This document shows, piece after piece, positions 29,334 through 49,381 of a DNA stretch of 64,000 nucleotides. This stretch comes from an uncultured virus (IMG/VR IMGVR_UViG_3300030109_004112) (Duplodnaviria; Heunggongvirae; Uroviricota; Caudoviricetes), in the IMG/VR virus record IMGVR_UViG_3300030109_004112; one strand, 5' to 3'. The notes under the pieces are model-generated. The model saw only the letters and a list, made by a program, of their open reading frames with translations, made no database searches and had not been told where the DNA came from. Numbering within the stretch: the stretch's first letter is position 1; every line of letters starts with the position of its first letter. Both the position numbers and the translations under genes were made by a program.

Positions 29334-29359
29334 TTTAATCCTTTTGGTTTGGTGAGTTT
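29334..29359 (-). promoter_or_regulatory. Conserved viral promoter element, copy 4
   Basis: Minus strand AAACTCACCAAACCAAAAGGATTAAA, inside the 3' end of the upstream CDS. Confidence 0.75.
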
Positions 29360-29721
29360 CTTATGTTGATTTTGATTCTCTTTGCTCCTGTACCATCCCA
29401 AACTGGCTCAAGACCATACTTAGATAGTATCTCCACAATGAAGTCACCGTCGCCAGCCCATGACAAGAAACACTCTTTTTCACTTCGTAGATTGTGGTCA
29501 TCTTGACTATGGAAGAATACTACCTTCTCGTGCTTTCCTTTGGGAACAGCATCCCAACCGCAAGTTTGACAACACCAAAAGTTCATCCTAGAAAAATATC
29601 CGTGGCTCCTCAAGTCTTTGAAAGCCGCCCTTATTCTTGGGTAGCCTCCATATCCGGTTGCACTACGATATTCCCGAAACATAAACACCCCATCCTCATT
29701 GAAATACTCTTCATTAACCAT
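29335..29721 (-). CDS. DUF6891-like protein
   Basis: AFKDLRSHGYFSRMNFWCCQTCG...VVFFHSQD...LSW...WDG. Confidence 0.6.
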   Translation of the reverse strand: MVNEEYFNEDGVFMFREYRSATGYGGYPRIRAAFKDLRSHGYFSRMNFWCCQTCGWDAVPKGKHEKVVFFHSQDDHNLRSEKECFLSWAGDGDFIVEILSKYGLEPVWDGTGAKRIKINIRNSPNQKD

Positions 29722-30002
29722 CAGAATTCCCCTCCTAGAACTGGCGAATCCCCTTCTGCTAGAGGGGCATCCACCGATTCCTCCTCGTTCTTCTCAATCC
29801 AATCAATCTCATCATCGGGAACGTCATCTTCATAATAGATTGCATCTACCGGACACTCGGAAACGCAAGCATTACAGTCTATACAATCGTCAGGGTCTAT
29901 CACCAAGTAAGTATCTAATTCTCTGAATGCGTCCACAGGACAAACTGCTACGCAATCTTGGTACTTATGACCAACACAAGCCGAAGTTACTACATAGGTC
30001 AT
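29721..30002 (-). CDS. fdxA: 7Fe ferredoxin ([3Fe-4S]+[4Fe-4S]), FdxA type
   Basis: [22 protein letters not shown]...[28 protein letters not shown]. Confidence 0.9.
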
Positions 30003-31774: not shown

Positions 31775-31801
31775 TATAATCCTTTTGCTTTGGTGAGTTT
31801 T
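31775..31801 (-). promoter_or_regulatory. Conserved viral promoter element, copy 5
   Basis: Minus strand AAAACTCACCAAAGCAAAAGGATTATA. Confidence 0.75.
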
Positions 31802-31810
31802 AGGGGTATC

Positions 31811-32035
31811 TTAATAATTCGTGTATTTCTTGTCAGGTCTAGGGGGGTAGATTTCCCCTGCTATTCTTTCAAAGTCCTTTTCGTTTAGTTGAATACAATT
31901 ACCGTTAAGATACCATGATGTAATGTCGGACATAACGGTGTCGCCCTTCCAACGGAAGGCTACGGCGATGTCGTATTCACCCATATCATCTTTCTTCATT
32001 TGTGTTAGGACATCTAACAATTCATCAACCTTCAT
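31811..32035 (-). CDS. Hypothetical protein
   Basis: ATGA-coupled. Confidence 0.55.
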   Translation of the reverse strand: MKVDELLDVLTQMKKDDMGEYDIAVAFRWKGDTVMSDITSWYLNGNCIQLNEKDFERIAGEIYPPRPDKKYTNY

Positions 32036-32334
32036 TCTTCCACCTCTTTTTTTGCCTTCGCTAATCGTTCAGCCTCTTCCTTTACAACATACCACACGCT
32101 AGAGGAGTCTACAAGGGCCTGTACTACCGGCGGTAGCAAGACTAGAGTTTTTCGTAACTCCCTTTCCACAGAATAAGATATTCCGTAATCTTTCGGCAAG
32201 ACACCGCTCAGAGTATCCGCAAAATGCTCGTCAACCTCTTGTAAATCCTCTAATAAATGAGTGATAAGTTCGCTATACCTATCAAGGTGGTCTAGTAGTT
32301 CTTGACTGTAATCCATACTCACCACTCCTCCCAA
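32032..32334 (-). CDS. Hypothetical protein
   Basis: ORF; likely start MDYSQ. Confidence 0.55.
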   Translation of the reverse strand: MGGVVSMDYSQELLDHLDRYSELITHLLEDLQEVDEHFADTLSGVLPKDYGISYSVERELRKTLVLLPPVVQALVDSSSVWYVVKEEAERLAKAKKEVEE

Positions 32335-32543
32335 TCAAAAACGAGTCCCGCTATTGCTCTCGCTACTTGTGAAGGACTTATCCATGAGCCTCTCACATAG
32401 CACCCTCTCTCATTCGTCCAAGCAGTATGCAAGGACATACCACAGGCCGCGTAACACGCCCTGTCTACTTCTCTCATCTCGGGTCGTAAGAACCACTCGC
32501 GCCTAAAACCTTCATCAAATGCATTAGTATCTCTATACATCAC
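32319..32543 (-). CDS. Hypothetical protein
   Basis: GTGA-coupled ORF. Confidence 0.5.
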   Translation of the reverse strand: MMYRDTNAFDEGFRREWFLRPEMREVDRACYAACGMSLHTAWTNERGCYVRGSWISPSQVARAIAGLVFDWEEW

Positions 32544-32698
32544 TCTTCCTCCTCGTATATTTTCTGTAACATTCGGTAAGCGGTCGCACTCAGTACCTTA
32601 TCCACCTGAGTCTTTCTCCAAAAACCCAACTGCCCGTTGTACTTGTTCACTCCTCTAACTTTCTTTCCCTTGTTGTATCTACTTCTCTGTTTGCTCAT
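32540..32698 (-). CDS. Small basic protein (52 aa, not in ORF track)
   Basis: MSKQRSRYNKGKKVRG...YEEEE; ATG 41 nt from promoter copy 6 core. Confidence 0.55.
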   Translation of the reverse strand: MSKQRSRYNKGKKVRGVNKYNGQLGFWRKTQVDKVLSATAYRMLQKIYEEEE

Positions 32699-32721
32699 AG
32701 TTTTTCCTCCTATTTCAATCC

Positions 32722-32748
32722 TATAATCTTTTTGTTTCGGTGAGTTTT
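32722..32748 (-). promoter_or_regulatory. Conserved viral promoter element, copy 6
   Basis: Minus strand AAAACTCACCGAAACAAAAAGATTATA. Confidence 0.75.
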
Positions 32749-33022
32749 ATCTTCTTCCTTGGAGATAAGGTAAGGACTGATAGTAAAGTGTCGAGGCTAA
32801 TTCCGGCTCATCTATCAGCCTTTTGATGTCCTCTCTGCGCTTGATTAACTCCGACCGTTGCTCTTCAATAACATTCTCAAGCCTTTGCTTTTCTTCAAAG
32901 GTAGCATCTAGTTGTCGTTCCATAAATTCCATTCTTTCCTCATGGTTCATTACATCCCAAACTGCCAGTCTCAATTCAATCTCATATCCTAAGTCTTTCT
33001 CAAACTTCATCTTGTCACTCAT
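32747..33022 (-). CDS. Coiled-coil hypothetical protein
   Basis: GAGGTGA RBS. Confidence 0.6.
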   Translation of the reverse strand: MSDKMKFEKDLGYEIELRLAVWDVMNHEERMEFMERQLDATFEEKQRLENVIEEQRSELIKRREDIKRLIDEPELASTLYYQSLPYLQGRR

Positions 33023-33194
33023 TCTATCACCTCACCATAGAGTGTCTCCAAGTATTCGGGACCGGCGCAATCAGAACAAATTACAATCTGACCGAAGCCT
33101 TGTTGGTAATGCAAGTCGTGGCCCTTTCCTATATATGGACGATATAATAGATTGCAGTAGTCGCAAGGATAATGATACTCAAAGATGTCAAAAC

Positions 33195-33647
33195 TCATTG
33201 TTCTTCATCTCCTATGTAGTAAGGACTGCATTCATCTTCTTGTTCCGCCTTTAACCAACAGTGAGGGCATTCCATCTCCTCTCTCTCTTTTGTATTATTA
33301 TTCCACATGTATGCGACAAACTGCTCACTGTTACATGAGCATCTATTTAGTAATCTATGGCCGTCCCTCTCGACATCATAGAATTCCCAGTAGCCTCCGG
33401 TGTCTATGGTTTGTGACCACTTCCATACATTCTCCACTTCTTCCTGTATCATGGCGGGCCATGTCTGATACTGCTTCCCGGTGTAGTCGGTCTTCCACTC
33501 CAATCCAATCCTTTCCGTGTTTCGTCTCAGAATCTTGGTTTTGTTGGGATGGTATCGAAATCTTATGGACTCATAATACCAATCGTCATAATCCCTACCG
33601 GGGTTTTCTTCTTCAAACTGCTCTCTACTCAATATGTTTATCATCAT
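33195..33647 (-). CDS. Hypothetical protein with C-terminal Zn finger
   Basis: CSC...CPHC; AAGGTGA RBS. Confidence 0.55.
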   Translation of the reverse strand: MMINILSREQFEEENPGRDYDDWYYESIRFRYHPNKTKILRRNTERIGLEWKTDYTGKQYQTWPAMIQEEVENVWKWSQTIDTGGYWEFYDVERDGHRLLNRCSCNSEQFVAYMWNNNTKEREEMECPHCWLKAEQEDECSPYYIGDEEQ

Positions 33648-33672
33648 TTCACCTTCTTATTTTTCTATCTTG

Positions 33673-33702
33673 GAGGGAGGGCCGGCTGACCGACCCCCCC
33701 TC
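33673..33702 (-). terminator. GC-rich 13-bp hairpin downstream of ardC
   Basis: GAGGGGGGGTCGG-TCAG-CCGGCCCTCCCTC. Confidence 0.5.
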
Positions 33703-33711
33703 GTTCTAGTC

Positions 33712-34773
33712 TCACTCCTTGGCCTCCACCCCGAAGTATTCGGGGAGTAGGTACTCGCAAACCTTCTGAGCCTTGGAAGCCGCCGAGAAGATAAACTTCT
33801 GTCCGTCGTCCTTGGCATCCTTGATGGCTTTCAGCCATGACTTCATGTACGCCGCGTGGTTTTCCATATTCTCCTCTATGGAGGTATCTTCGATACCTAG
33901 GGCTATGCACATCATCGAGGCCGACATCTCCGCCACCAATTCCTCGTAAGCATAATCCTCACTACCGAACCGACCCGACATATCTCTATCTAGTCTTTCG
34001 GGATGTCCCGTCCAGTGAGCCATCTCATGAGAGATGGTAGCACATCGACCCGTCGGGGTCTTGAAGTGCTTCCTTTCCGGTACTTGGATATAATCTACTG
34101 CCATGTTATAGAAGGCGGAGCCTCCTCCCTCGCGGAAGTCTATCTTGTGTTCCTTCAAGAGAGAATCAATATGCTCCTCTGCTTCGGTCTTGGCCGTTTC
34201 GGTTTCCTTCTTGGTGGGCTTCTTCTTCTTGGGAATCGGCAGCCCTGTCTGAGACTTGTTGAACACCATGAAGAACCGCTGAATCCAAACGCTCCGCGTC
34301 TCCCTCTTCTTTTCTCCGGTCTTTTCGTCTTCGACTTCGTTTGTGTAGGATTTCATTTCGTAGAAGACAACCGGGAAAGATGCCTGTCCCTTCTTGACCC
34401 CATAGTAAGCCGTAGGCTTCTTCCATGTTCCGCCATCCTTCTTCGTGACTTCCTTGAACTCACCCTTCTTGACGGCATGCTTCGCTGACTCCTTCTTCCA
34501 AAAGTCGAAGGTTCCCCACTCATCACTCTTGAACCCCTCACTAGACTTGAATAACATCAAAGACCATACATTTATGCCCTTGTAAGGGGTCTTCTTTGAA
34601 CCGGTTGATGCCCTGATGGGTAGCCCATCAAGTAGTGCTCCGGCTCCGTCCCATGGCTTTTGCCAAGGACGGACGCCCCTCTTGAGTTGGTCGGTTATTA
34701 CACCGGCCACCTTCTTGTGAGCGTTCTTGGCTCTCTCTTTCGCTGTCATCTTTTTCACTTCCTTTGCTATCAT
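33712..34773 (-). CDS. ardC: ArdC-family antirestriction / ssDNA-binding protein with zincin domain
   Basis: RPWQKPW, YKGINV, WGTF, FMVFNKSQ, AFYN..DYIQVP, HEMAHWTGHPERLDR, YAYEELVAE. Confidence 0.9.
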   Translation of the reverse strand: MIAKEVKKMTAKERAKNAHKKVAGVITDQLKRGVRPWQKPWDGAGALLDGLPIRASTGSKKTPYKGINVWSLMLFKSSEGFKSDEWGTFDFWKKESAKHAVKKGEFKEVTKKDGGTWKKPTAYYGVKKGQASFPVVFYEMKSYTNEVEDEKTGEKKRETRSVWIQRFFMVFNKSQTGLPIPKKKKPTKKETETAKTEAEEHIDSLLKEHKIDFREGGGSAFYNMAVDYIQVPERKHFKTPTGRCATISHEMAHWTGHPERLDRDMSGRFGSEDYAYEELVAEMSASMMCIALGIEDTSIEENMENHAAYMKSWLKAIKDAKDDGQKFIFSAASKAQKVCEYLLPEYFGVEAKE

Positions 34774-34810
34774 ACTTCTTCCTCCTTGCTCTCATATTGT
34801 CCTGTACTTG

Positions 34811-34843
34811 CTAGTTAATATACCTTTCGCTTTGGTGAGTTTT
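34811..34843 (-). promoter_or_regulatory. Conserved viral promoter element, copy 7
   Basis: Minus strand AAAACTCACCAAAGCGAAAGGTATATTAACTAG. Confidence 0.8.
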
Positions 34844-34844
34844 A

Positions 34845-35045
34845 CTATTCCGATGTAATGCCGAACCGGATTTCACCAATTTTTCCATAGTAGTCCTCCA
34901 TCAATCTTTCCATCTGTTCGGGGGTTACGGTGAATCCCTCCGGTCCACTGTTCCGCACCGAGTTGATGATATAATTCATGAACTGTGTTAGCAGTCGGTT
35001 CTCCGCCTGTAATTTCCAAAGGTACTTCTCCTCTATATCCGTCAT
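34845..35045 (-). CDS. Hypothetical protein
   Basis: ATGA-coupled. Confidence 0.55.
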   Translation of the reverse strand: MTDIEEKYLWKLQAENRLLTQFMNYIINSVRNSGPEGFTVTPEQMERLMEDYYGKIGEIRFGITSE

Positions 35046-35344
35046 TGGCCCTCACACCCCCTTTGTCTATCTTCCTCTTCCATCTCTGCGGTAAGACCGC
35101 TAGTATCTTCCAATCTTTGTTCTATTGTGCTGAATAAATCATTGATTCTATCGTGTTCTTCGGGGAAAACAAATGGGCTTATCTCTATGAATTCGGACAT
35201 AGCCCCTGCAAATTTCTCATACTCATCTAACATTCTCTGTGCTTCCTTTTTCAATTCCTCAGGAGTAAGTCTTTCCGCATTTCTCCCAAATCCTTGCATC
35301 ATTTCTTCTTCATTTAGTTCACTCATATCTATCCCCCCATTCAC
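35042..35344 (-). CDS. Acidic helical hypothetical protein
   Basis: ORF; likely start MSELNEE. Confidence 0.55.
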   Translation of the reverse strand: MNGGIDMSELNEEEMMQGFGRNAERLTPEELKKEAQRMLDEYEKFAGAMSEFIEISPFVFPEEHDRINDLFSTIEQRLEDTSGLTAEMEEEDRQRGCEGQ

Positions 35345-35651
35345 TTATCAACTCGCCTAACTCACCTGACATATCATCCGGCTCCCCAATCGCTGCCATG
35401 CAAAAATCCATCAGTTCCGTGTGGTCGTAGGGGTCGCCATTCTCATTCATATAAATTTGCGCCGCTACGCAAGTCAGGTTGTATCTCATTTGTAGGTAGT
35501 TCTCTTTGGTTCGTTGCTGTGCCTCTGCCAGTAAAACATGTATTTCCCGCAAACTTTCAATTTCGCGGGTTTGGTCTTCCACTGTTTGGTAGAGTTCATG
35601 CAATGTCTCAAATAGTTTCTCTGCTTCATGCGTCATTCTTCTCGTCCTCAA
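35319..35651 (-). CDS. Coiled-coil hypothetical protein
   Basis: Downstream of promoter copy 8; likely start MTHEAEK. Confidence 0.55.
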   Translation of the reverse strand: MRTRRMTHEAEKLFETLHELYQTVEDQTREIESLREIHVLLAEAQQRTKENYLQMRYNLTCVAAQIYMNENGDPYDHTELMDFCMAAIGEPDDMSGELGELISEWGDRYE

Positions 35652-35665
35652 ATATACTAGGAATC

Positions 35666-35699
35666 GCTAGTTAATATACCTTTCGGTTTGGTGAGTTTT
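35666..35699 (-). promoter_or_regulatory. Conserved viral promoter element, copy 8
   Basis: Minus strand AAAACTCACCAAACCGAAAGGTATATTAACTAGC, nearly identical to copy 7. Confidence 0.8.
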
Positions 35700-35789
35700 A
35701 TCATTTATGTTACGTTTCTCTATTAGTTTTCTTGGTGGATGAATTTTCATTTTCTGCAACCGGTTTTTATGTTACTCCCATAAACGACC

Positions 35790-35828
35790 AAAAAAAATTA
35801 GGATTGGGGAGCCGAAGCCCCCCAACCC
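35790..35828 (-). terminator. Hairpin plus oligo-T terminator
   Basis: GGGTTGGGGGGC-TTCG-GCTCCCCAATCC then TAA and T8, right after ORF 35839..36123. Confidence 0.75.
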
Positions 35829-35838
35829 ATTTACGTAA

Positions 35839-36123
35839 TCAAGCGGTCAAATATTCGCCCGACTTTACCTTGGCCCTAACATCCTTTATGCTGTCCTCGT
35901 TCAAGAACTGCAATAGGTAGCGGTTAGTTGTCGCGCTGTAAAAATCCCAGTAGGGTTCATACAGGGTGACGGTTCCGTACTTCAAATCTCCAAGGCCCCC
36001 CGCCTTCGTTGCTACTTTGCTGCTGTAAGATTGGAAGGTTACGCCGTCATTAGTCTGTATTATGAACTGATTGGCCGCATATCCCCCGCTCGCGGTTCTC
36101 ATGTTTTCCACCTTCATTCTCAC
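35839..36123 (-). CDS. Phage hypothetical protein
   Basis: MKVENM...ANQFII...FQSYSSKVA...WDFYSATTNRYLLQFL. Confidence 0.65.
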   Translation of the reverse strand: MRMKVENMRTASGGYAANQFIIQTNDGVTFQSYSSKVATKAGGLGDLKYGTVTLYEPYWDFYSATTNRYLLQFLNEDSIKDVRAKVKSGEYLTA

Positions 36124-36344
36124 GCCTCCCTAGATATCACACCATCGGAAACGAGGGCATCGTAGTTCTCCATCCACGAAACCAATACATTATTAGCCTC
36201 GCCTTCGGACATGCCGTAACCGTTCATCAGGAACGGGGCCGCACCGAACATATTAGTTATGCCCGATTGCCTCAGTGCTTCAAGGTACTCGTAGTACCCT
36301 GACCATTCTTCGTTGTATGCTTTTTCATTCTTCGTTTTCTCCAT
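36120..36344 (-). CDS. Phage hypothetical protein (LRxSGxTNMF motif)
   Basis: YLEALRQSGITNMFGAAPFL; GGAGG RBS. Confidence 0.65.
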   Translation of the reverse strand: MEKTKNEKAYNEEWSGYYEYLEALRQSGITNMFGAAPFLMNGYGMSEGEANNVLVSWMENYDALVSDGVISREA

Positions 36345-36534
36345 TTCTATTCCTCCTTGTCTTGATGTAGTTGAGAGCATCAATGGTAGATTGTAGTCCA
36401 TTGTATGCTGAACCCTTTTCAATCTCGTGATTCATGAGAAGGTCTAGGGCCCTGTTTGCCCTGTCAAGGTACTCCTTGAGCATCTTGTTCTCTTCCAGTA
36501 GGTCTGCTAGGATGTCGTCATAATCGACTATCAT
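36325..36534 (-). CDS. Coiled-coil hypothetical protein
   Basis: Start MIVDYDD by ATGA overlap. Confidence 0.55.
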   Translation of the reverse strand: MIVDYDDILADLLEENKMLKEYLDRANRALDLLMNHEIEKGSAYNGLQSTIDALNYIKTRRNRNGENEE

Positions 36535-36662
36535 CGGTTGTCCCTCCATCGGGATGCTCCCTTTGAGAAGCCCACAAAAGTCCAGTTAGGACTTGAGGGG
36601 TAGCCCCAGTCGTTCAGGTCAGCCTTTGGTATCTTGCTAATGGTTCGGGTCTTTTCCGCCAT
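36531..36662 (-). CDS. Small protein (43 aa, not in ORF track)
   Basis: MAEKTRTISKIPKADLNDWGYP...; ATG 41 nt from promoter copy 9 core. Confidence 0.5.
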   Translation of the reverse strand: MAEKTRTISKIPKADLNDWGYPSSPNWTFVGFSKGASRWRDNR

Positions 36663-36682
36663 GAAACTCCTTTTTTTCTCAA

Positions 36683-36712
36683 CTACTTAATGCTTTTGCT
36701 TCGGTGAGTTTT
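36683..36712 (-). promoter_or_regulatory. Conserved viral promoter element, copy 9
   Basis: Minus strand AAAACTCACCGAAGCAAAAGCATTAAGTAG. Confidence 0.75.
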
Positions 36713-36717
36713 ACTTA

Positions 36718-37049
36718 TTATGTTACGCTTTTCTCAGAAGTTTATTTTATGTTACGCTTTTCTTTTTCTACGCGCACAAAGTCTCAAATATATGTTACGC
36801 ATAATCTTCTCTCTTTTATGTTACGTAGTTACAGGAGCCCAAAATTATGTTACGCAATTACTGGGGATAAAAAAAGAGAGCGTAACATATATCTCACTCC
36901 TCCTCCTCGCGTGGGCAGGTGACGCATCGGTACGTAACATATCTCTCGCGGGTCTGCCTGTTGAGCATCACGTATCTACTGTCTGCCCGCACGTAACATA
37001 TACAACATCGTGCGCCGAGGGGAGCAGTGGAAATCTCAAGCGTAACATA
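36718..37049. repeat. TATGTTACG box cluster (5 forward then 4 reverse)
   Basis: Forward at about 36718, 36747, 36791, 36816, 36845; reverse CGTAACATA at 36881, 36933, 36992, 37041. Confidence 0.9.
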
Positions 37050-37063
37050 TTTCTCTGAGTCTC

Positions 37064-37324
37064 TCACTCCTCCCCCTCCTTGTGTTTTTCGATTGCATCC
37101 CTCTCATAGTCTGTCAGTCTTCGGCGTGACCTACCTGACTCGTCCTCCCCCTTGAGCCGTCGATGTGCTACCATCTCTTCCGGGTACAGCATCCCTGCTA
37201 ACTCTGCCCTCGCGTGTACGCTCTGCGGCTTCATGATGAAGTCGTGGGCGAACTCTTCGGGGTCACGGCCGAGGAGGCGGCGGAAGCGTCGGACGCCTCT
37301 CTTTCGGTCTTCTGCCCTGCTCAC
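37064..37324 (-). CDS. Basic hypothetical protein
   Basis: GTGA-coupled, GAGGTGG RBS. Confidence 0.55.
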   Translation of the reverse strand: MSRAEDRKRGVRRFRRLLGRDPEEFAHDFIMKPQSVHARAELAGMLYPEEMVAHRRLKGEDESGRSRRRLTDYERDAIEKHKEGEE

Positions 37325-37590
37325 GCTTCCACCTCCTCTATACGTCCTTCCACCCACCAATCATACCAATCCTTGTAATCCAAAGACGCCTCACCTATGC
37401 AAAATATCGGCAGGTAATCGGTCGGACACCTGCGGTATCCTTGCGCCCTATCCCACTTTCTGACGGCTAGCAGGGATTCGTGAAATTTTTCTGCGGTGGG
37501 CCAGTAGTCGGTAATTTCTAAGACCATTTGCCGCGCTCTTTCGATTTGCCACCGTGATGATTTTTTCATCAGCCTTCGCGTTTTTCTCAT
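37321..37590 (-). CDS. Hypothetical protein
   Basis: ATGA-coupled. Confidence 0.55.
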   Translation of the reverse strand: MRKTRRLMKKSSRWQIERARQMVLEITDYWPTAEKFHESLLAVRKWDRAQGYRRCPTDYLPIFCIGEASLDYKDWYDWWVEGRIEEVEA

Positions 37591-38036
37591 GACTCACACC
37601 CCCCGCACACGGCTTGTGAATAGTCCTTGGGATTGACTCGGCTCATGACGTGCAACGGGCCGCGACCCTTGCACCTCACACACGCCGCGTATCTGCCGTG
37701 TATGATGCCCGGAGGTAGGATTGAGACTAGTGCCCAATCCCACCCGGTCTTTTTCTTTCGGCGGGCCGCTCGCTTTCTTGCCGCTGCTGCCCTTGCTATT
37801 TTTGCCCGTCTTTGGGCGGCTGCCGCCGCGAGCGTCATTTGCTCCGCGTCGCTGGTGGCGTGGTTTGTGTTCCCCTTCCGGTCAGAGTACGACCGCGACA
37901 GCACACACGTCTTGTAATGCTGACGTGATGGGCAGCCGCACGGCCGCCTCTTGATGTTGCCCCGGCCGGAGCCGCCGCTGTTCCCCTTGGCGCGGCTGTC
38001 GCCCTTGGCCCCCTTGGTGATGACTCGCTTGGTCAT
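37587..38036 (-). CDS. Highly basic Cys-rich putative nucleic-acid-binding protein
   Basis: CGC..H..C, AAAARKRAARRKKK helix, CVRC...CGGC. Confidence 0.55.
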   Translation of the reverse strand: MTKRVITKGAKGDSRAKGNSGGSGRGNIKRRPCGCPSRQHYKTCVLSRSYSDRKGNTNHATSDAEQMTLAAAAAQRRAKIARAAAARKRAARRKKKTGWDWALVSILPPGIIHGRYAACVRCKGRGPLHVMSRVNPKDYSQAVCGGCES

Positions 38037-38239
38037 GCGAGACACCCCCTCTTACAGTTAGGGCACTTTTCGGGATAGTCATCATCAAGAATCCACAGAG
38101 GGGAGCCGTACTCGTCCAGTGTCTTCCCGTCCCAAGTCTTCCCGGTCCTATGGGGGAAAATGAAACAGGCGTCTTCTAGGTGAAAGTGATAGTCGCACCA
38201 CTCCAACCCTCCACGGCATCTAATGATGGGGCTGCTCAC
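38033..38239 (-). CDS. Small Zn-finger protein
   Basis: C...C...CPNC; coupled overlaps. Confidence 0.5.
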   Translation of the reverse strand: MSSPIIRCRGGLEWCDYHFHLEDACFIFPHRTGKTWDGKTLDEYGSPLWILDDDYPEKCPNCKRGCLA

Positions 38240-38529
38240 GATTCATCACCCCCGACCATCAGAGCCGCTATCGTGGCGGCCCACTCTTCACCTTCCTTTG
38301 AAGGCATCTCGGCATTCAGTCTCTCACGGCGGGCGGCTAGTGTATCACTAACACGCGCCCGTACATGTGAGGCCCTCACACCCAACCGGGAAAAGTCCCG
38401 GCGTGGGTTGAGGGGTATGGCATCTAACTCACCTGCTGCGCAAACCGAGCAAAGTACGAATCCCTCGGGGGGGATAACATACGATGCGGGCCGGCTGCAT
38501 GAGCAGGTGGGCGGTGTGTCTCGGCGCAT
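38236..38529 (-). CDS. Zn-finger protein; first gene of leftward transcription unit
   Basis: CSC...LCSVC; follows promoter copy 10. Confidence 0.55.
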   Translation of the reverse strand: MRRDTPPTCSCSRPASYVIPPEGFVLCSVCAAGELDAIPLNPRRDFSRLGVRASHVRARVSDTLAARRERLNAEMPSKEGEEWAATIAALMVGGDES

Positions 38530-38565
38530 TTTTCTGTCCTCACATATAGCAGGGAGCCGGCGGTC

Positions 38566-38592
38566 TATAAACTTTGGGGTCTGGTGAGTTTT
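38566..38592 (-). promoter_or_regulatory. Conserved viral promoter element, copy 10
   Basis: Minus strand AAAACTCACCAGACCCCAAAGTTTATA. Confidence 0.7.
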
Positions 38593-38597
38593 ACGTA

Positions 38598-39600
38598 TTA
38601 TGTTACGTTTGGGGTTTTTGGGGTTATTATGTTACGTTTAGATAGTTTTTATGTTACGCATATAAGATATTATGTTACGCACACATCGGAACATCAGCAC
38701 TCTTTTATGTTACGCGACCTTTTTTTGCGGTTCTGTCTTTTCTGTTACGCCGACGGTCCGAGTCTTATGTTACGCTCACTGCTAGCCTACGAAATATATG
38801 TTACGTTTTCACTGAGAAAAATATCACAACTGGTAACTTTATGTTACGCATACGGACCCTAGGAGCGATGGGGTAACATAAACTCTGCGTCTGAATCTCA
38901 AAAATATGTTACTCCCTCCCCCCACCCCCCGCTTCTTTTTCTCGATAGGGGGTTTTCGTAACATAATCTTGTTGCCTGTGCGTAACATAACGAACCGGTT
39001 CGGGTAACATAATTTTGCCGGAGCAGCGAGCGTTATGTTACGTTTTGGGGGGGTGGTTTTTTTCGACCGGGGCAAACTCGCCAGTTTGCGTAACATAATG
39101 CTTGTCGTAACATAACGCTACACCGTATTAGTTTTTTATGTTACGCCTCTCTTTTTTCTGAAATTGGGCTTTTTGTAACATAACGTAGTACGGCTTATAA
39201 GGTTTGCCCGTAACATAACGTTCAAAAAAAGTAACATAAAATTGGCTTTCAGTAAAGCGTTATGTTACGTTTTCGGCCTCGCTCGCTCACACCCCCCCTC
39301 TCAGGCCCAAAAAAAATGAGTACTTAAAGGGCGTAACATAACGCTTCACTGAACCCCAAAATTATGTTACGTTGGGTTAATTAATAACTGAGCGTTATGT
39401 TACTCCCCCAAACGACCTAAAGACTATATACCCCCTAGCAGATGATTAACCCCGGACGCGCTTGAAAATTATGTTACTCCCTAGCCGGTGGTTCAGGCGG
39501 GCTCACGTAACATAACGCTTCACCATATCCCAAAATTATGTTACTCCAACACCCTTACCACGGAGACGCAAAGTGGGTTCGCGTTGAAAATTATGTTACT
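38598..39600. repeat. Main TTATGTTAC(G/T) box array, about 29 copies in both orientations
   Basis: About 18 forward and 11 reverse copies counted by eye in a 1-kb non-coding gap between divergent transcription units. Confidence 0.92.
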
Positions 39601-39610
39601 CCATGATATC

Positions 39611-39628
39611 GGCAAAGGTATAAGTACT
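39611..39628 (+). promoter_or_regulatory. BRE/TATA promoter for rightward genes
   Basis: GGCAAAGGTATAAGTACT about 25 nt before ATG 39649. Confidence 0.55.
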
Positions 39629-39648
39629 AGTGAAAAACAGGGAGATTC

Positions 39649-39930
39649 ATGGGAGGAAAGCAAACCATAACATTGAGCAATGTTGAAATGAGTATCGTAT
39701 ACCACGCGCTACTCACGAGACTAAGCGAGATGATGAGAGAAGACGACAAGAACGAACGCCGAGAGAGGGAGGTGGCAGAGTTGACGGCCATAGTTGACAG
39801 TATGCAACAGCAGATGGAAAGCAACTGGTCGGAGATAGAGGCCGACGCCGCCTTTGAGAGAGAGACGGAGGGAGTAAGACTCCTATCGTCAATCCCCGCC
39901 TTCGGAGACAAGACGGAGGACATGGCATGA
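39649..39930 (+). CDS. Helical hypothetical protein
   Basis: ORF after TATA; ATGA-coupled to next gene. Confidence 0.6.
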   Translation: MGGKQTITLSNVEMSIVYHALLTRLSEMMREDDKNERREREVAELTAIVDSMQQQMESNWSEIEADAAFERETEGVRLLSSIPAFGDKTEDMA

Positions 39931-40214
39931 GTACCAAGGAAACTAGGGACATGGTATACCTTCAGATGGTACTATCGTTCATAGAAACGAGTACCCCCGC
40001 GAAGTACGCGGAACTGCAAAACACAGTAGAGCAAATGCAGACCATCGACCCAAGACACGCTGAGATGTATGCGACGATTGGGAAGACCTTGGAGACACTG
40101 CGCGACAAACTGTGGACGGGCGTGGACGTGAATGGAGAGGTGAGTTGGATGGTAAAGTCACTATCCAAGAGCCAAAAGAGGACGTTGTACGGGGAGGACG
40201 GCGAAAAGGAGTAG
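39927..40214 (+). CDS. Hypothetical protein
   Basis: GGAGG RBS; followed by hairpin. Confidence 0.6.
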   Translation: MSTKETRDMVYLQMVLSFIETSTPAKYAELQNTVEQMQTIDPRHAEMYATIGKTLETLRDKLWTGVDVNGEVSWMVKSLSKSQKRTLYGEDGEKE

Positions 40215-40225
40215 GTCAGACTAAC

Positions 40226-40253
40226 GGGGGTCGGCTGGTGGTGGCCGGCCCCC
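40226..40253 (+). terminator. GC-rich hairpin after 39927..40214
   Basis: GGGGGTCGGCT-GGTGGT-GGCCGGCCCCC. Confidence 0.5.
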
Positions 40254-40317
40254 CAACAATATGTTACGCAACAAAAGAAAGAAAATATGATAAGGAGTGA
40301 TAAAGACGAAAGGATGA

Positions 40318-40518
40318 GTGAAACGTATGACAGCGAACACTGAAGAAGAAATGACGAACGGAGATATAGTGGCTTGTTTAGCATGCCACTGTTTGATTGC
40401 CTTGGAGGAGGGTTACTGGCAGAGAACCACGATAGCCAAGTACCCTATGCCCAACTCGGTTGGGACCTTAGTAGCGTTCTGTGATGAATGCAATATGGTC
40501 GTTGAGGTGGGCTACTAG
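40318..40518 (+). CDS. Small Zn-finger protein
   Basis: CLAC...FCDEC; start uncertain. Confidence 0.45.
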   Translation: MKRMTANTEEEMTNGDIVACLACHCLIALEEGYWQRTTIAKYPMPNSVGTLVAFCDECNMVVEVGY

Positions 40519-40527
40519 ATACTAAAA

Positions 40528-40691
40528 TATGTTACGCACCACTTGGATAAATCCGGACTAAAAATCCGTTTTCTAATCAAACATATGTTACGCGGTTTTT
40601 TACTAGACGATATGTTACGTCTCTTTTTTGTAGGCATTATGTTACGCCTCTTTTTCTGTGAGTGATATGTTACGCTTGGCGTTATGTTACG
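40528..40691 (+). repeat. TATGTTACG direct-repeat cluster (6 copies, plus one at 40260)
   Basis: Copies at 40528, 40584, 40611, 40638, 40666, 40683. Confidence 0.9.
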
Positions 40692-41084
40692 TCCCAGTGA
40701 CCACTAATGAACCGAAGGTTGTATAGTGAAATGACCAACCTAATTGTGAACACTGGTAGGTTAGAACCTGCTTCTGTGATACTGCGAAATTGGCCGAATT
40801 TCCGCTATCGTGACCCGCGAATTATCGTTGATTTGCTTATAAGGGCCGGACTTGAAAAATGGGTCCGGAAATGCGAAATCACCGGGAGAAACTACCCAAT
40901 GGCCCCAAACACGGCGACAGGTGCGCCAAATCGCCCAATGCAGCCAAATAACCCATATTATGCACATATCGCGTATGTCGTGAATATGGGGTCAGATGGG
41001 CAGGGGGCATATAGTCTTTCGCTGTTCATGCTCACCCCCGCATCAAATCCGGCGTTTATAGGGGGGTCACGCGTAAGAGGAGGC

Positions 41085-42362
41085 ATGGCAGGTACACCAC
41101 CAACCACCATAGGAGACACGCCGGGAACGACCCCGGCCCTATCCGTCTTGGACGTGATGAACGTCCCGAGGGAGGTCATCTTGACTTCCCTCGCGTTCAT
41201 CGGCTCCTTGATTGATAGGATGATTGCAGAGACAGCCAGCAAAGCCGGACTGATGAAGGCCCTCAGGAGCATGGGCGTCAAGGGCAGTACGCTCAAGACC
41301 CTCAGGGACCGCATCGTTGAGCGAGCAGGTCAGACCTACGAGGTACGAACATGGCCGACAGTACTCACCATGAAGCAAGCCGAGAAGTTTGCTGCGGCGG
41401 GTGTGTTCTCGGAGATTGTCGGACAGGGACAGAGGTTCGTTGAGAACAAGGGTCAACACGATGTCCGACTAGACCGGGCCGAGAAGGTAGCCAAGGAACT
41501 CAACCAGCCGCTGCTTGATGGCTGGTCCGATTGGATGGCAACCCGCACATGGGTTGATGCTCCCTACGTGCTGATTAACTCCCTCGGAGTGAATGCGACC
41601 GTGTTCAACGAGTGGGCAGAGGGTCAGTATGGAGAGAACCAGTATTCACCCAAGATGACCGGGGCCATGCTGGAAGGAGAGCGAGGGTTCACCCTCACCG
41701 ACCGGGAGGGCTCAAAGAGCGACTTCCAGCAGGGAGCGCGGGACGGCTGCGCCAAGAACCTCAACACCAAGACCGGCGAGATGAAGATTAGGCCTGTATG
41801 CACCGACATGGCAGGGAGGCCAGCGTTCAACGCTGCTCACGACCTAAGCGGTCAGTGCCGAGTCTGTGGGGGCAAGGTGGCGAGTGTCTACCGGCACGAT
41901 ATCGCAACCCGCAACAATCAGACCTTGAAGATGCCATGCCTCCTCAAGCATAACCAGCCCGGACCCAATGGGGGAGATGGCAAGTTATCCACGACCCGCA
42001 GGGCATCAAGCGGGAACTGGGGCCACTCGGTTCAGGTCGGCTACAACTGCCCGACAGGAGCAAGGACGGCAGCGGGCAAGAAGGTTCGCAAGGTCCGCAG
42101 GGCGAGCGGTGGATACGAGCGGTTCATCTTCACCGTGAGAGACCATGACGAGGAGGGGGAGCCATACGAGTTCCACCTTCTAGGACGGGCCTTCGTGGAG
42201 GGCTGGCACAGAGGCAACGAGAAGGACATTCTCGGCACCGACGCCGAGTACCTCTTGTGGATTGCCAACCGCACCCACTGGGACGACTCAACCCCGGCAT
42301 GGAAGACCCCAAGGGGGACTCGCATCAACTCAGAGGTTGACGCGGTCCTCGGGGCTCTCTGA
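41085..42362 (+). CDS. GC-rich hypothetical protein (425 aa)
   Basis: Start refined to ATG 41085 (TTTATA at 41055, GAGGAGG RBS); CRVC motif; followed by hairpin. Confidence 0.7.
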   Translation: MAGTPPTTIGDTPGTTPALSVLDVMNVPREVILTSLAFIGSLIDRMIAETASKAGLMKALRSMGVKGSTLKTLRDRIVERAGQTYEVRTWPTVLTMKQAEKFAAAGVFSEIVGQGQRFVENKGQHDVRLDRAEKVAKELNQPLLDGWSDWMATRTWVDAPYVLINSLGVNATVFNEWAEGQYGENQYSPKMTGAMLEGERGFTLTDREGSKSDFQQGARDGCAKNLNTKTGEMKIRPVCTDMAGRPAFNAAHDLSGQCRVCGGKVASVYRHDIATRNNQTLKMPCLLKHNQPGPNGGDGKLSTTRRASSGNWGHSVQVGYNCPTGARTAAGKKVRKVRRASGGYERFIFTVRDHDEEGEPYEFHLLGRAFVEGWHRGNEKDILGTDAEYLLWIANRTHWDDSTPAWKTPRGTRINSEVDAVLGAL

Positions 42363-43042: not shown

Positions 43043-44539
43043 TCACCTGTCGATTACTCCGCTCACTCCGCCTCTACTACGATTGATACGGCCTTTGTTA
43101 ACTCCGCCTAACCACTCGCCGCCCTTCGCCGTACCCAATACCACGGGCATTCCGTTATCCTTAACCGAAAATTGGTCTATTGCGTGAGCGAGTGCCATAA
43201 CTGTATCGTTATGTCTTCCCAAATCAACAATCAAACCATTACGCCAAGCGTGACTTTCCAATTCCTCTAGAACAATATTGATTTGAGTTCTTGTTTCGTG
43301 ATTACCATAAGGGAATATCACCAATTCTCTTTCAAGCCAAACCCTAAGCCTATTTAGAAGTCCTTGCTTCAAAGTCCTATTACCAACCTTACTTTCTCTA
43401 TAATCTACCATAGCACCCTTCTGAGTAAGAAGACTCTCGTATAATTGTTGAAATCCTACGGATTCGACGGCAAATGCCGGTGTCCCGTATCTCTTATTCC
43501 AGTCTATCATCATATTGGCCTGTTTGTCAGGAGGAAAGTCGTTTCTCCTCCACATATTCACAAAATGAATAAACCCTTCGTCATCTTGCCTTAAGCAAAT
43601 CATTACGCTATAATCCTGACCTAATCCATGAGCAGGGTCAAAACCGACAGAATATCTGTGGTTGTACTGTTTATCCGGTTCTAATAAAGAATCTATATCC
43701 AAATTAGCCCTTGTGATATTACGGGGATAAACTGCGGCGTCATCGTCTATAACCTTACAGAGATACTCCTGTATGAAGGAGAGGTCCCCCATGGCTTGTC
43801 TTTGCTCAAGTAAGAATGCTAAACTCCTAAACTCCGGCCATAGTGCTTTGGGCTCTACATTTTCCGGGTCTGCCCTCCAATCATCCCAATTTGGAATACT
43901 AGACCATACCCCGCTTTTCCATGTATCATTATCTAACATCTCTGTATGATATAGGTCATTCATACTCATAGGTGTCCCAACGACATAAATTGCGGTTCCG
44001 GGGCTCAACATCGGTGTAACCTTCTTCCTAAACCATTGTTGTGTGTTTTTAGGGTCTAAATCCCCACTATCGTCCAATACGTCATCAAAAGCGATACAGG
44101 CAGGGTGCTCACCACGAATAGCAGCCCCAACCGAAGTTGCACGAATCCATGCACCATTAGTGAATCTTAATTCTAGTTTATTTCCCCTACGGGGGTCCAA
44201 ATACCTAGAAAGTTGCGGGTGTCTCTTCATATCTTCTCTTATCTCTTCAAGACGCCTTGCAGCCAAATCTTTGCTAGCAGAAAAGAGCCAACAAGTAAAG
44301 GGCTTGTTCCTCCACTTATCAAATAGGGCATGATGCAATAATTTGACTCTTAGAGTAGTAGATTTACTGTGGTCACGAGGAGCAATCACACAAACCCTAT
44401 GAACCTGTGTATCACCGCGTTTACCATACATATCCATCCATTCACCAATATGGTCGCCCCAAGTATAGCCAAGCCAACGATAGAAATATTTATCGTCGTA
44501 TTTTGCCCTTTCCATGGAAAAGGAAAGAAAATCACTCAT
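43043..44539 (-). CDS. terL: Terminase large subunit
   Basis: APRDHSKST (Walker A), IRGEHP, IAFDDVLDD (Walker B), VGTP, nuclease GFDPAHG..DYSV, HNDTVMALA. Confidence 0.92.
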   Translation of the reverse strand: MSDFLSFSMERAKYDDKYFYRWLGYTWGDHIGEWMDMYGKRGDTQVHRVCVIAPRDHSKSTTLRVKLLHHALFDKWRNKPFTCWLFSASKDLAARRLEEIREDMKRHPQLSRYLDPRRGNKLELRFTNGAWIRATSVGAAIRGEHPACIAFDDVLDDSGDLDPKNTQQWFRKKVTPMLSPGTAIYVVGTPMSMNDLYHTEMLDNDTWKSGVWSSIPNWDDWRADPENVEPKALWPEFRSLAFLLEQRQAMGDLSFIQEYLCKVIDDDAAVYPRNITRANLDIDSLLEPDKQYNHRYSVGFDPAHGLGQDYSVMICLRQDDEGFIHFVNMWRRNDFPPDKQANMMIDWNKRYGTPAFAVESVGFQQLYESLLTQKGAMVDYRESKVGNRTLKQGLLNRLRVWLERELVIFPYGNHETRTQINIVLEELESHAWRNGLIVDLGRHNDTVMALAHAIDQFSVKDNGMPVVLGTAKGGEWLGGVNKGRINRSRGGVSGVIDR

Positions 44540-47671: not shown

Positions 47672-48192
47672 TGACTCCTTTCTTAATCGTAGCAGTAGTA
47701 TTTATTGTACTTTGTTCGTTTTTGTCTAGAACATTTATCAATCAAATTACTCTAAGACGAGGTATGGCTAGACCGGGGGCAGGGAATCCGAACGAAAAAC
47801 TAATGCTTATTTTTGGTTTTGGAGTAGTAATGTCGTGGGTAGTAATTGCGTCTGCGGCTTCGTATTACAGTATTGTTGAAGTGAGGGAAATAAGCGATTC
47901 GCAACTGACTGTTATCGGTCTTTTGGGTGGTCCGGCACTTCTCATAATAACAAGTGTGCTAGATTTATTCAAGGGTAAGGAGACAGCAAAGATAAACGTC
48001 CTACCGGACAGGCTTTCTGCCGATGTCGCTTCTGCTGATGCTCAGAGAACCCACACACGTACATTAGAAGAAATTCAATTGAAGCACGACTTGGATATGC
48101 GAGCATTGAAACAGGCTCACGAATTGAGAATGGATGCGTTTAACACCACTAAGGATAAGAAAGAGGCTGATATGCCAAAGAAATCTAAGTGA
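47671..48192 (+). CDS. Membrane protein (2-3 TM, holin-like?)
   Basis: Hydrophobic segments then charged coiled coil. Confidence 0.5.
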   Translation: MTPFLIVAVVFIVLCSFLSRTFINQITLRRGMARPGAGNPNEKLMLIFGFGVVMSWVVIASAASYYSIVEVREISDSQLTVIGLLGGPALLIITSVLDLFKGKETAKINVLPDRLSADVASADAQRTHTRTLEEIQLKHDLDMRALKQAHELRMDAFNTTKDKKEADMPKKSK

Positions 48193-48536
48193 TGGGTATG
48201 TGGGAATACCAAGCAGAATTACTTAGAGTAATTGACGGCGACACTGTTGATGTCAGAGTAGATTTAGGATTCAAAGTCCATTACAATGTTCGCGTAAGAA
48301 TGCACGGAATTAATGCGCCGGAATCCCGAACACGGGATAAGGCGGAGAAGGTCAGGGGCCTTGCCGCGAAGGAAAGACTGGAACAACTGATAACGGGGAA
48401 GAACATAATATTGAAATCTCACGGTGTCGGTAAGTTTGGTAGGTGTCTAGGGACCATTATGGTCGGAGGCGTTAGCGTCAACGCCACTTTGGTTAAGGAA
48501 GGACACGCAGTTGAGTACTTTGGCGGAAAGAGGTGA
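48189..48536 (+). CDS. Thermonuclease (SNase family)
   Basis: RVIDGDTVD, VRMHGINAPES, KFGRCLG, LVKEGHA. Confidence 0.88.
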   Translation: MMGMWEYQAELLRVIDGDTVDVRVDLGFKVHYNVRVRMHGINAPESRTRDKAEKVRGLAAKERLEQLITGKNIILKSHGVGKFGRCLGTIMVGGVSVNATLVKEGHAVEYFGGKR

Positions 48537-49381
48537 AAATGTTGTCAGCAGAAGAGGTTGATTCAATTATTGAGGTTATCAATCAACGAGCAACCGAAGT
48601 AAGACAACTAATTATCACCATAGGCTCTATCCTTGCACTTCTCATGCCGGCCGTTGAAATGGTGGGTATTCTCGACATCACTCCCTATGGGGAAGGTGAT
48701 GACGAATGGATAGGAGACGCTGATTGGGAATGGGGCGACGATTTTGAGTGTGGTGACGGAACCATGATACAAGCATCCTTAGTTAATGATGGATATAGAA
48801 ACTGTCGTGATGGTTCAGACGAACCCGAAGAAGAAGTTGAAGAAGTTAATGGAAATAATACTGTGATATTGCCCGAACAGGGATGTACCGACCCCAACGC
48901 ATTGAATTACGATGAAGAAGCAGAAGAAGATGATGGTTCCTGCGACTATGGTGGAGATGAACCAAATAGGGGTTGTACCGATGATAACGCGACTAACTAT
49001 GATTCTTGGGCCGAAGAAGACGATGGCTCATGCGAATATGAAGATGATGTCTCTATACCGGAAGATTGTAGGCCCGATATGTGGGATGCGTTTTATGATT
49101 ATGACAATGGTAATATGACTATTAGTTGGGATGCAGACCTTACTTGTGATAACGCACCACACAACCTAACCCTAATTTGGACCTTTTACCATAATACCAC
49201 CAACGAAACAGGAAATTGGTCGGGCATACAGGAAGAATACACCTACGAAACATATTATCAAGATTGGGATTATGTGAACCTAACAATAGCGGTTCCCGAA
49301 GGTTATTATGATATTTTTGGCACTTTTGGATTTAATGATAATTATTATCGTGCCGTCGATTGGTATGCGGTGGAAGTCTAA
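48533..49381 (+). CDS. Membrane-anchored acidic protein with LDLa-like and GCTD repeats
   Basis: N-terminal TM; ECGDG...NDGYRNCRDGSDE; two GCTDxNAxNYDxxAEEDDGSC repeats. Confidence 0.7.
   Translation: MKMLSAEEVDSIIEVINQRATEVRQLIITIGSILALLMPAVEMVGILDITPYGEGDDEWIGDADWEWGDDFECGDGTMIQASLVNDGYRNCRDGSDEPEEEVEEVNGNNTVILPEQGCTDPNALNYDEEAEEDDGSCDYGGDEPNRGCTDDNATNYDSWAEEDDGSCEYEDDVSIPEDCRPDMWDAFYDYDNGNMTISWDADLTCDNAPHNLTLIWTFYHNTTNETGNWSGIQEEYTYETYYQDWDYVNLTIAVPEGYYDIFGTFGFNDNYYRAVDWYAVEV

Follow-up and report, generated by a model that had tools for sequence, protein, structure and literature searches.

Why would a virus crowd dozens of copies of one short word into a few gaps between its small genes, and what would read them? 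The question arises in a 64,000-nucleotide stretch of DNA from an uncultured virus (IMG/VR record IMGVR_UViG_3300030109_004112), which was analysed at its full length and is called the window here; it represents 64 kb of sequence and not a whole genome. Copies of the word TATGTTAC, referred to as boxes, form four arrays in it. On balance we think it probable that these boxes are recognition sites for one DNA-binding protein, private to the lineage and most likely virus-encoded, and that the arrays make up the control region of a block of accessory and anti-restriction genes.

Counting exact matches on both strands of the window revealed 50 copies of TATGTTAC, while 100 dinucleotide-preserving shuffles gave a mean of 2.17 and a maximum of 5, and none of them reached 50. 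The enrichment over background expected by the original prediction was therefore found. Within 35706-40690 lie 46 of the 50 copies, grouped as follows:

35706-35775, plus strand: cluster 1, two boxes (35706 and 35768) between the leftward genes 35319-35651 and 35839-36123.
36719-37049, both orientations: cluster 2, nine boxes, five forward (36719-36853) and then four reverse (36882-37049).
38599-39599, both orientations: cluster 3, the central divergent array, with 15 forward and 13 reverse boxes (28 in total) over a non-coding stretch of about 1.1 kb.
38873-39544, both orientations: six composite inverted-pair units GTAACATAA-N20-TTATGTTAC inside cluster 3, 40 bp each.
40260-40690, plus strand: cluster 4, seven boxes, all forward.

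The four intergenic clusters, their placement and their orientations had been described correctly from the first inspection of the sequence, as had the sizes of clusters 1, 2 and 4; the exact total is 46 instead of about 47, and the third cluster holds 28 boxes, not about 29. Cluster 2 occupies a 400-nt gap with the leftward genes 36531-36662 and 37064-37360 on either side. Cluster 3, the largest, indeed separates divergent transcription units, as it is flanked by a leftward gene starting at 38529 and a rightward gene starting at 39649. At the left edge of the cluster (38596-38680) AT content reaches 72.5% over 80 nt (99.8th percentile of the window), and this patch is made up of closely spaced AT-rich boxes. 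In cluster 4 one box lies upstream of a 66-aa gene (40318-40518) and six, within 40528-40690, lie upstream of a 551-aa open reading frame (ORF).

The base following the box was G in 36 and T in seven of the 46 copies, in line with the G/T ending assigned to it originally, but C in two and A in one; the preceding base was T in 34 and A in 12. Based on these counts the box consensus is about W-TATGTTAC-G-Y. The core measures 10–11 bp, its flanks are not conserved and it contains no TATA of its own. Boxes of the same orientation are spaced irregularly, 17–74 nt apart, with a minimum start-to-start distance of 17 nt. When up to one mismatch was allowed, 48 sites were found in 35600-40750 (9.3 per kb) versus 32 in the remainder of the window (0.54 per kb). 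All 46 boxes between 35319 and 42362 fall into the 1,998 non-coding bases and none into the 5,046 coding bases, a split that rests on the ORFs chosen in this analysis; genes of the region are thus free of boxes, as had been proposed. The additional claim that boxes occur nowhere else did not hold, since four more copies are present at 313, 7229, 17730, and 25058. All of these are inside ORFs, and their number equals the chance expectation.

Arrays of short repeats might arise during assembly, a concern already raised with the original prediction. Single contigs from runs X1 and X2 (possibly the source samples) span 38247-41000 without a substitution, and pieces of all four clusters recur in contigs from two further studies (X3 and X4), with 0–2 differences each. 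As bridging contigs exist and sequences from other studies match, the arrays are no assembly artefact.

The locus was then compared across related viruses, with the terminase gene as anchor:

43043-44539, minus strand: large terminase gene, anchor for the locus comparison, with arrays downstream of it in all relatives.

We collected 80 loci around terminase relatives (66–100% identity) and counted 8-mers without prior assumption. Downstream of the terminase an 8-mer repeated at least eight times was found in 22 of 22 loci with at least 5 kb there, compared to one of 28 loci in the upstream control (at least 5 kb upstream of the terminase). Box arrays are a family-wide feature, and each lineage has its own related word. 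Besides TTATGTTAC in the window, the array words are TTATGTAAC, TTATTGTAAC, TTTTGTAAC, ATTTGTAGC, AATTGTAACC, and TTATGTAG; TTTGTAGC, TTTTGTAGT, ATTTGGATT, TATTTGTTGGTAAG, and TTTTGGCCGTG in other lineages; and ATTTGTTAC, CTTCGTAGG, and TCGCAAGCGT in further genomes. These are about 15 different words that share a common theme despite the differences between lineages. A search of other magrovirus-like contigs, as suggested originally, hence recovers the arrays throughout the family but the window's own word TTATGTTAC arrayed only in near-identical contigs. In a scan of viral contigs with the composite unit, an array appeared only in a near-identical contig, and the other 23 contigs have 2–3 boxes.

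Also in complete genomes the boxes are concentrated: 42 of 43 lie inside 3.8 kb in G004, 83 of 90 inside 8.2 kb in G006, and 23 of 25 inside 1.1 kb in G003. In most lineages boxes extend over 4–9 kb and stand at the promoter of each small gene. G003 has a single central array, at the same divergent position, and no promoter-by-promoter arrays. No array was observed in G030 (the record behind locus L301; region L309), a complete genome of 60 kb with a terminase 57% and a polymerase 48% identical to those of the window; its top 8-mer downstream of the terminase occurs seven times in 12 kb, and this genome may mark the outer limit of the array system. In L027, L016, L019, L064, L067, L069, and related loci the top word is TATA-like (GGGTATATAA, AGTATATAC) with 8–18 copies, which could be either boxes of the same system or merely repeated promoters.

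Two relatives that share a word, L054 and L057, allowed box positions to be compared with their surroundings. There were 0 substitutions in 256 aligned box positions, versus 93 in 850 spacer positions and 168 in 826 coding positions. Thirty-two of 34 boxes were intact in place and the other two had been deleted whole. By these alignments, the boxes are under purifying selection. The arrangement of boxes follows a grammar as well: only the reverse-then-forward arrangement keeps a fixed distance, while other combinations of orientation vary. In the window the pairs start at 38873/38905, 39004/39034, 39107/39137, 39231/39261, 39333/39363, and 39507/39537, that is 32, 30, 30, 30, 30, and 30 nt from start to start, although their spacer sequences are unrelated. 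The pair spacing is 10 in seven of seven pairs in L049, 12 in nine of 10 pairs in L066 and four of five in L087, and 30–31 in both pairs of L061; in G006 it is 6, and the pair forms a perfect 16-bp palindrome. Box conservation and fixed pair spacing are marks of sequence-specific recognition by a protein able to bind as a dimer.

The boxes also keep fixed distances to promoter-like sequences. Two features are needed here:

31792-38593, minus strand: six-copy promoter-like repeat, consisting of TAAAACTCACC, about 10 nt and a TATA-like word (TATATTAA, ATTATAGA, TTTATAGA, or ATTAAGTA).
33712-34773, minus strand: ArdC-like anti-restriction gene, served by one of the six promoter-like repeats.

On the plus strand the repeat reads GGTGAGTTTTA and begins at 31792, 32739, 34834, 35690, 36703, and 38583. 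Each copy is located upstream of a leftward operon, that of ArdC among them, and all three copies inside the box region (35690, 36703, and 38583) have a box exactly 4 nt upstream. For the rightward genes at 39649 and 40318 a box precedes the TATA-like word by 17–19 nt. In relatives, the unit found for each small gene comprises a CT-rich tract, direct boxes, an inverted pair, a TATA-like word and the start codon. An ATG follows 41–42 nt past the proximal box in 10 of 13 pairs of L066 and L087 (seven counted by a scripted ORF criterion, three read from the printed sequence), and TTCATATAG stands at +12 to +15 from the proximal box in these two loci. L049 carries the word TTCATA after its pairs, as L066 and L087 do. 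At three consecutive genes of G006 the palindrome is followed by ggTTCATATAgg at about +28 and by ATG at +56/57, and at other promoters of this genome a single box lies 5–13 nt upstream of TTATAAGG. Fixed distances from boxes to TATA-like words and start codons were observed in at least five lineages. In relatives the TATA-like word is positioned about 26 nt before the ATG; in archaeal promoters this is the spacing of leaderless messages. The TATA-like words presumably are promoters, and the boxes would then be situated just upstream of the position of the transcription factor B recognition element (BRE). In L066 and L087 a long CT-rich tract (ctctctctct) was noticed behind each small gene, right before the next array, and these tracts may be terminators.

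The original prediction offered four functions for the boxes, namely an iteron-type origin, a partition or centromere-like array, a control region for injection or packaging, and a sponge for a host regulator. Purifying selection, the fixed spacing of pairs and the strict absence of boxes from coding DNA lend good support to the idea common to them, that of protein-binding sites on DNA, but another reading is better supported than any of the four. According to the reading that we favor, smaller arrays lie on both sides of the central divergent one, which is about 1.1 kb long, and extend right up to the promoter cores of leftward and rightward operons. One molecule of the protein would occupy a single box and a dimer an inverted pair; filling of the arrays might be cooperative, and filled arrays would switch all promoters of the accessory block together. 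As the preferred direction, early accessory genes would be shut off by spreading of the protein from high-affinity boxes onto BRE and TATA. Such spreading from high-affinity sites onto BRE/TATA is described as a proposal for the archaeal-virus regulators SvtR and AvtR (PMC5569661), and the model of distal sites plus spreading is taken from these ribbon-helix-helix (RHH) precedents. Alternatively, the protein might activate from a site just upstream of BRE. The central array may in addition be a replication origin. A more far-reaching version, which we put forward tentatively and regard as rather improbable, would be an address code, in which one fast-evolving viral reader and 25–90 ten-letter words mark the origin (the central array) and every accessory or anti-defence promoter, and thereby define specificity groups.

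Who might the reader be? Three candidates encoded in the window were considered:

37587-38045, minus strand: the gene called cluster 8 here, encoding a basic protein of 152 aa that combines Cys/His knuckles with a long basic helix and a Zn ribbon at the C terminus.
40707-42362, plus strand: the family S gene, the 551-aa ORF directly behind box cluster 4, with a conserved start probably at 41085 (MAGTPP...).
12900-13241, minus strand: gene of a 113-aa helix-turn-helix (HTH) protein, overlapping the start of PolB by 14 nt.

The cluster 8 gene is the first gene past the divergent array in several relatives, and tblastn detected the protein in 21 of 79 loci plus the window. As an obligate binder it was rejected; it is absent from L022 between the arrays and DUF932, and from the whole records G003 (100% complete, with arrays) and G002. 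Searches with this protein gave no PDB sequence match, stray Zn-ribbon matches only in Pfam, chance-level scores in the Atlas and nothing at E ≤ 0.001 in Foldseek. Family S is fast-evolving and virus-restricted and has a conserved Cys cluster; a search of 1.84 billion representatives brought up only 23 relatives at E ≤ 0.001, and we regard the family as a candidate binder or initiator. A hidden Markov model of the family matched in 11 loci, covering six word classes only, and did not find it in L049, L066, L087, L035, L013, or L010. For family S there was no PDB sequence match below E = 0.45, nothing in the Atlas and nothing at E ≤ 0.001 in Foldseek; Pfam SAP matched in one of 24 members, and the best Z of VIA, 6.7, is within the noise of that tool.

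The recognition helix of the HTH protein varies between lineages. The window and G027 have in common the helix PMAVYKWLKK and the half-word TGTTAC, although their PolB proteins are only about 60% identical, and G006 and G028 have the same word and the same helix type. Across 13 genomes the distance between HTH proteins correlated with the distance between words (r = 0.35, p = 0.007). When PolB distance was partialled out (11 non-redundant genomes), the correlation fell to r = 0.22 (p = 0.15); the recognition helix alone gave r = 0.15–0.18, which is not significant, and PolB distance itself was about as strongly correlated with word distance (r = 0.34, p = 0.025). As evidence that the HTH protein is the binder, this covariation is not robust and suggestive only. 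A SAP protein (62345-62725) was also tried as reader; it is 54–78% identical in five of five genomes and, being so conserved, is ruled out as a lineage-specific reader.

Several observations weigh against a control region read by a single viral regulator. None of the three candidates passed a decisive test, and no HTH or RHH regulator was detected by Pfam among 150 array-region proteins from 14 lineages. The six pair units of the central array have no TATA-like words or genes after them, and about 1 kb with 28 boxes far exceeds the need of two divergent promoters. As G003 has the core array only, the conserved core could serve, for example, replication. Moreover, the dominant strand was the same in every one of the 25 array loci examined, so that orientation is constant on the genome and not relative to the genes; in the window, forward boxes precede rightward genes (cluster 4) as well as leftward genes (clusters 1 and 2). 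Regulators acting next to promoters do not usually show such constancy, which would fit a process running in a single direction along the genome.

These points lead to the alternative of an iteron-like replication origin, in which a viral initiator or specificity factor would assemble on the central array while the smaller arrays would provide copy control and autoregulation. It can coexist with a role in transcription, and we consider it possible but doubtful. The many direct repeats combined with inverted pairs at promoters resemble an iteron grammar, what is conserved at the core is a single non-coding array, about 1 kb long, located where gene orientation diverges (the sole array in G003), and the AT-rich patch at the 99.8th percentile borders this array. 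According to the text of PMC5434244, magroviruses possess their own replisome, and an origin is not described there. The best anecdotal covariation, that of the window and G027, involves the HTH protein overlapping PolB, and word distance follows PolB distance; however, the HTH covariation loses significance after the PolB control (p = 0.15, n = 11). Further, among the 88 ORFs of the window covered by our Pfam-type scans there is no Rep, Orc1/Cdc6 or other initiator recognisable by Pfam. Boxes of 10–11 bp at irregular spacings of 17–74 nt differ from helically phased iterons of 17–22 bp, and in most lineages they spread over 4–9 kb to each small gene's promoter, which is more than an origin needs. 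GC skew, whose cumulative inflection was recommended originally as a check, tracks gene strand and therefore cannot place an origin. The boxes might instead be recombination joints, short homologies for the gain, loss and swap of cassettes with regulation being secondary, in the manner of the PeSL cassettes of T4-type phages (PMC4122927). This would fit a hypervariable region in which most genes have no homologue in relatives and cassette content differs even between relatives with the same word. One indel, at L054 15232-15782, corresponds to a 138-aa gene that L057 lacks, and each of its ends lies no more than 8 nt from boxes of the same orientation; the window gene 35839-36123 is 77% identical in L049 despite 67% terminase identity. 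Nevertheless we regard recombination joints as unlikely: only one of about three indels in the box regions of L054 and L057 ends at boxes, the others being 88–330 nt off, and words of ten bases offer little length for homologous recombination. The absence of substitutions in boxes and the fixed pair and TATA distances indicate sequence-specific recognition and not mere homology. Since the words differ between lineages, exchange between lineages cannot be mediated by the boxes.

Even less is to be said for the other three functions, of which a site for partition or episome maintenance, a centromere-like array bound by an adaptor in the manner of the omega/ParB heptads of pSM19035, appears very unlikely to us. 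Short repeats of mixed orientation at several promoters do recall the omega heptads, which as described in PMC9499535 are parS and operator sites at once. That account, however, requires at least four contiguous heptads for the pSM19035 site, and the boxes are not contiguous (PMC9499535). No ParA-, ParM- or TubZ-type nucleoside triphosphatase was found in the 88 window ORFs or in the 150 array-region proteins of relatives, 185,579 species genomes contained no integrated or host-linked terminase relatives, and there was no sign of a persistent episomal state. Similarly small is the chance that the boxes act as a decoy for a host protein that binds DNA, be it a regulator, a chromatin protein or a defence sensor, and draw it off the host genome or the viral DNA. 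With as many as 90 high-quality sites in one genome and their number raised further by replication, such a sink would be effective, and a viral binder was not identified among the candidates examined. Yet words that differ at 66–76% terminase identity would ask for as many host factor specificities, and the precise promoter geometry of the boxes also speaks against a sponge. A scan of cellular genomes with the composite unit stayed at chance level, with at least 120 matches, all single and in unrelated bacteria, where about 90 were estimated by chance; no locus had more than seven boxes, no Poseidoniales were among the 80 titles listed, and single host sites lie outside the reach of such a scan. 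A packaging, ejection or genome-end signal near the terminase (a pac-like or terminal-repeat array) is scarcely probable at all. The arrays are always 1–9 kb downstream of the terminase, the near-identical contigs G001 and L058 stop at the big array, and box orientation is globally constant. But contig ends were unbiased in 79 loci (65 upstream versus 67 downstream), a count of contigs in which molecule ends are not visible, and single contigs bridge the array of the window. The arrays stand at the same place on a circularly closed genome; the ends of G006 are a 119-bp overlap, and its arrays run across the junction. A spread over 5–9 kb between genes, with promoter geometry, is not pac-like either.

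How the boxes relate to known repeat systems was considered next. In iteron plasmid origins such as those of P1, F, and pSC101, direct repeats are presumably bound by monomers and inverted repeats at promoters presumably by dimers. The boxes are similar to these in their direct and inverted repeats and their extra clusters outside the core, and inverted pairs just upstream of TATA-like words in relatives correspond to iteron autoregulation, but at many promoters. Iterons measure 17–22 bp, are phased, number 4–20 and lie beside a recognisable rep gene; the boxes are shorter, irregularly spaced and more numerous, and the family S gene beside them matches no known family or fold. In archaeal origins, origin recognition boxes (ORB and mini-ORB) flank an unwinding element beside an orc1/cdc6 gene; the window does not show this arrangement, its only Orc1/Cdc6-type AAA+ match being an RFC-like clamp loader (16285-17262).

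Among archaeal viruses, the class I and II intergenic repeats (IRs) of HF2 and haloferacalesviruses (Russ, Pfeiffer, and Dyall-Smith 2021, PMC8707807) are, as described there, promoter-tied repeats of 58 and 29 bp. Like them, the boxes are intergenic, belong to a tailed archaeal virus, are tied to promoters, are conserved in position and are proposed as sites for virus-encoded regulators. HF2 IRs are, by that description, whole promoters of 29–58 bp with BRE, TATA and start site, whereas the boxes are 10–11 bp without TATA; they occur one per site and 7 + 2 per genome, compared to 2–28 boxes per gap and 25–90 per genome; and they are near-identical across the genus, whereas only the position of the boxes is conserved (22 of 22 loci) and the word is lineage-specific. 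The six-copy TAAAACTCACC-N10-TATA repeat of the window is itself of the HF2-IR kind and shares the whole-promoter feature. The viral RHH dimers F55 (SSV1), SvtR (SIRV1), and AvtR are reviewed as binding repeated or inverted motifs at early promoters (PMC5569661); in that account they have 1–4 target promoters with 1–2 sites each, whereas dozens of sites are present here.

The stoperators of Cluster A mycobacteriophages (Mavrich and Hatfull 2019, PMC6550527) are likewise presented as tens of short asymmetric sites with a lineage-specific consensus. Their words are stated to track the binder, one virus-encoded protein, and to define specificity groups (PMC6550527). Stoperators are described as single sites throughout the genome and oriented with transcription, while the boxes are arrayed within 2–11% of the genome and keep one absolute orientation across divergent arms; unlike in the stoperator phages of that study, no repressor, integrase or lysogeny is evident here. 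The omega (ParB) heptads of pSM19035 (Volante et al. 2022, PMC9499535), about 7–10 short repeats of mixed orientation at several promoters, are reported to be bound cooperatively by one small dimeric protein. As portrayed there they are contiguous and serve as a centromere with a ParA ATPase, whereas the boxes have variable spacers and no partition ATPase was found in the window. With the PeSL (promoter early stem-loop) cassettes of T4-type phages (Comeau, Arbiol, and Krisch 2014, PMC4122927) the boxes have in common that regulatory elements recur beside the small, variable genes of a hyperplastic region, where every gene forms a transcription unit by itself; PeSLs are characterised by one composite promoter plus stem-loop per junction and homologous recombination, instead of an array of short words per junction (PMC4122927). 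The main texts of the magrovirus papers PMC5434244 and PMC10160649 do not mention such arrays; the repeats treated in the text of PMC11706807 are only terminal or assembly-related, and those in PMC8651126 are only at attachment sites. The box system has something in common with each of the systems compared and lacks defining features of each.

The genes around the arrays fit an accessory region. The window comes from a tailed virus whose replication module is of archaeal type (family B polymerase, the RFC-like clamp loader at 16285-17262, and an ERCC4 nuclease) in addition to the large terminase, an Mre11-like exonuclease and a portal. The virus is probably magrovirus-like; its relatives stem from marine metagenomes. 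The box region is placed between the terminase and the ArdC-like gene and is filled with small genes, and the ArdC-like gene marks the leftward arm as an accessory or anti-defence block. DUF932 genes lie just past the arrays in eight of eight relatives scanned, and DUF2958 and DUF3846 genes occur there too; all three families are commonly found in the first-entering or anti-restriction regions of mobile elements. Thirteen of the 16 genes in 35319-42362 have homologues in no more than two relatives' loci, with the near-identical contig L058 set aside. The window gene 35839-36123 (94 aa) is 77% identical to the L049 gene 10681-10941 although the terminases are only 67% identical; it is located on the opposite arm in L049, which uses another box word, and by sequence comparison it looks like a cassette exchange between lineages. 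One X2 contig skips 197 bases (38037-38235) and so loses most of a 68-aa gene (38033-38239). At 38197-38276 both the X1 and X2 assemblies split into short variant contigs, which points to population variation at this spot.

Elsewhere in the window, a 2,375-aa ORF (505-7632) had no Pfam or PHROG match at E ≤ 0.01, and a 1,459-aa protein (55311-59690) within the structural block had 12 matched stretches of collagen triple-helix repeat (E = 6e-58). On the leftward arm a 93-aa 4Fe-4S ferredoxin-like protein (E = 3e-11) adjoins a DUF6891 protein (E = 4e-16; 29335-30002). A pyrimidine-dimer DNA glycosylase-like protein is encoded at 26331-26927, a staphylococcal-nuclease homologue at 48189-48536 and a protein with an LDL-receptor class A domain at 48533-49381. 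Rfam gave 0 matches at E ≤ 0.1 within 35000-41500, and a tRNA gene search found none.

Magroviruses belong to the most abundant viruses in the surface ocean but, like their hosts, cannot be cultured; we know of nothing reported on their gene regulation or on where their replication starts. The arrays are the most conspicuous non-coding feature of these genomes; they take up about 2 kb of the window and as much as 8 kb in one relative, and they locate the putative promoters of accessory anti-defence genes. The word can be read from any contig; it predicts a cognate binder that is testable in vitro without culture, and it may serve to group viruses by their regulatory or replication specificity. 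Should the central array turn out to be an origin, it would be the first one defined for this group of viruses. If the address code were true, pairs of word and reader would constitute specificity groups among viruses co-infecting one uncultured host, the equivalent among archaeal viruses of incompatibility groups in plasmids or heteroimmunity in phages, and the turnover of words would be driven by competition between related viruses.

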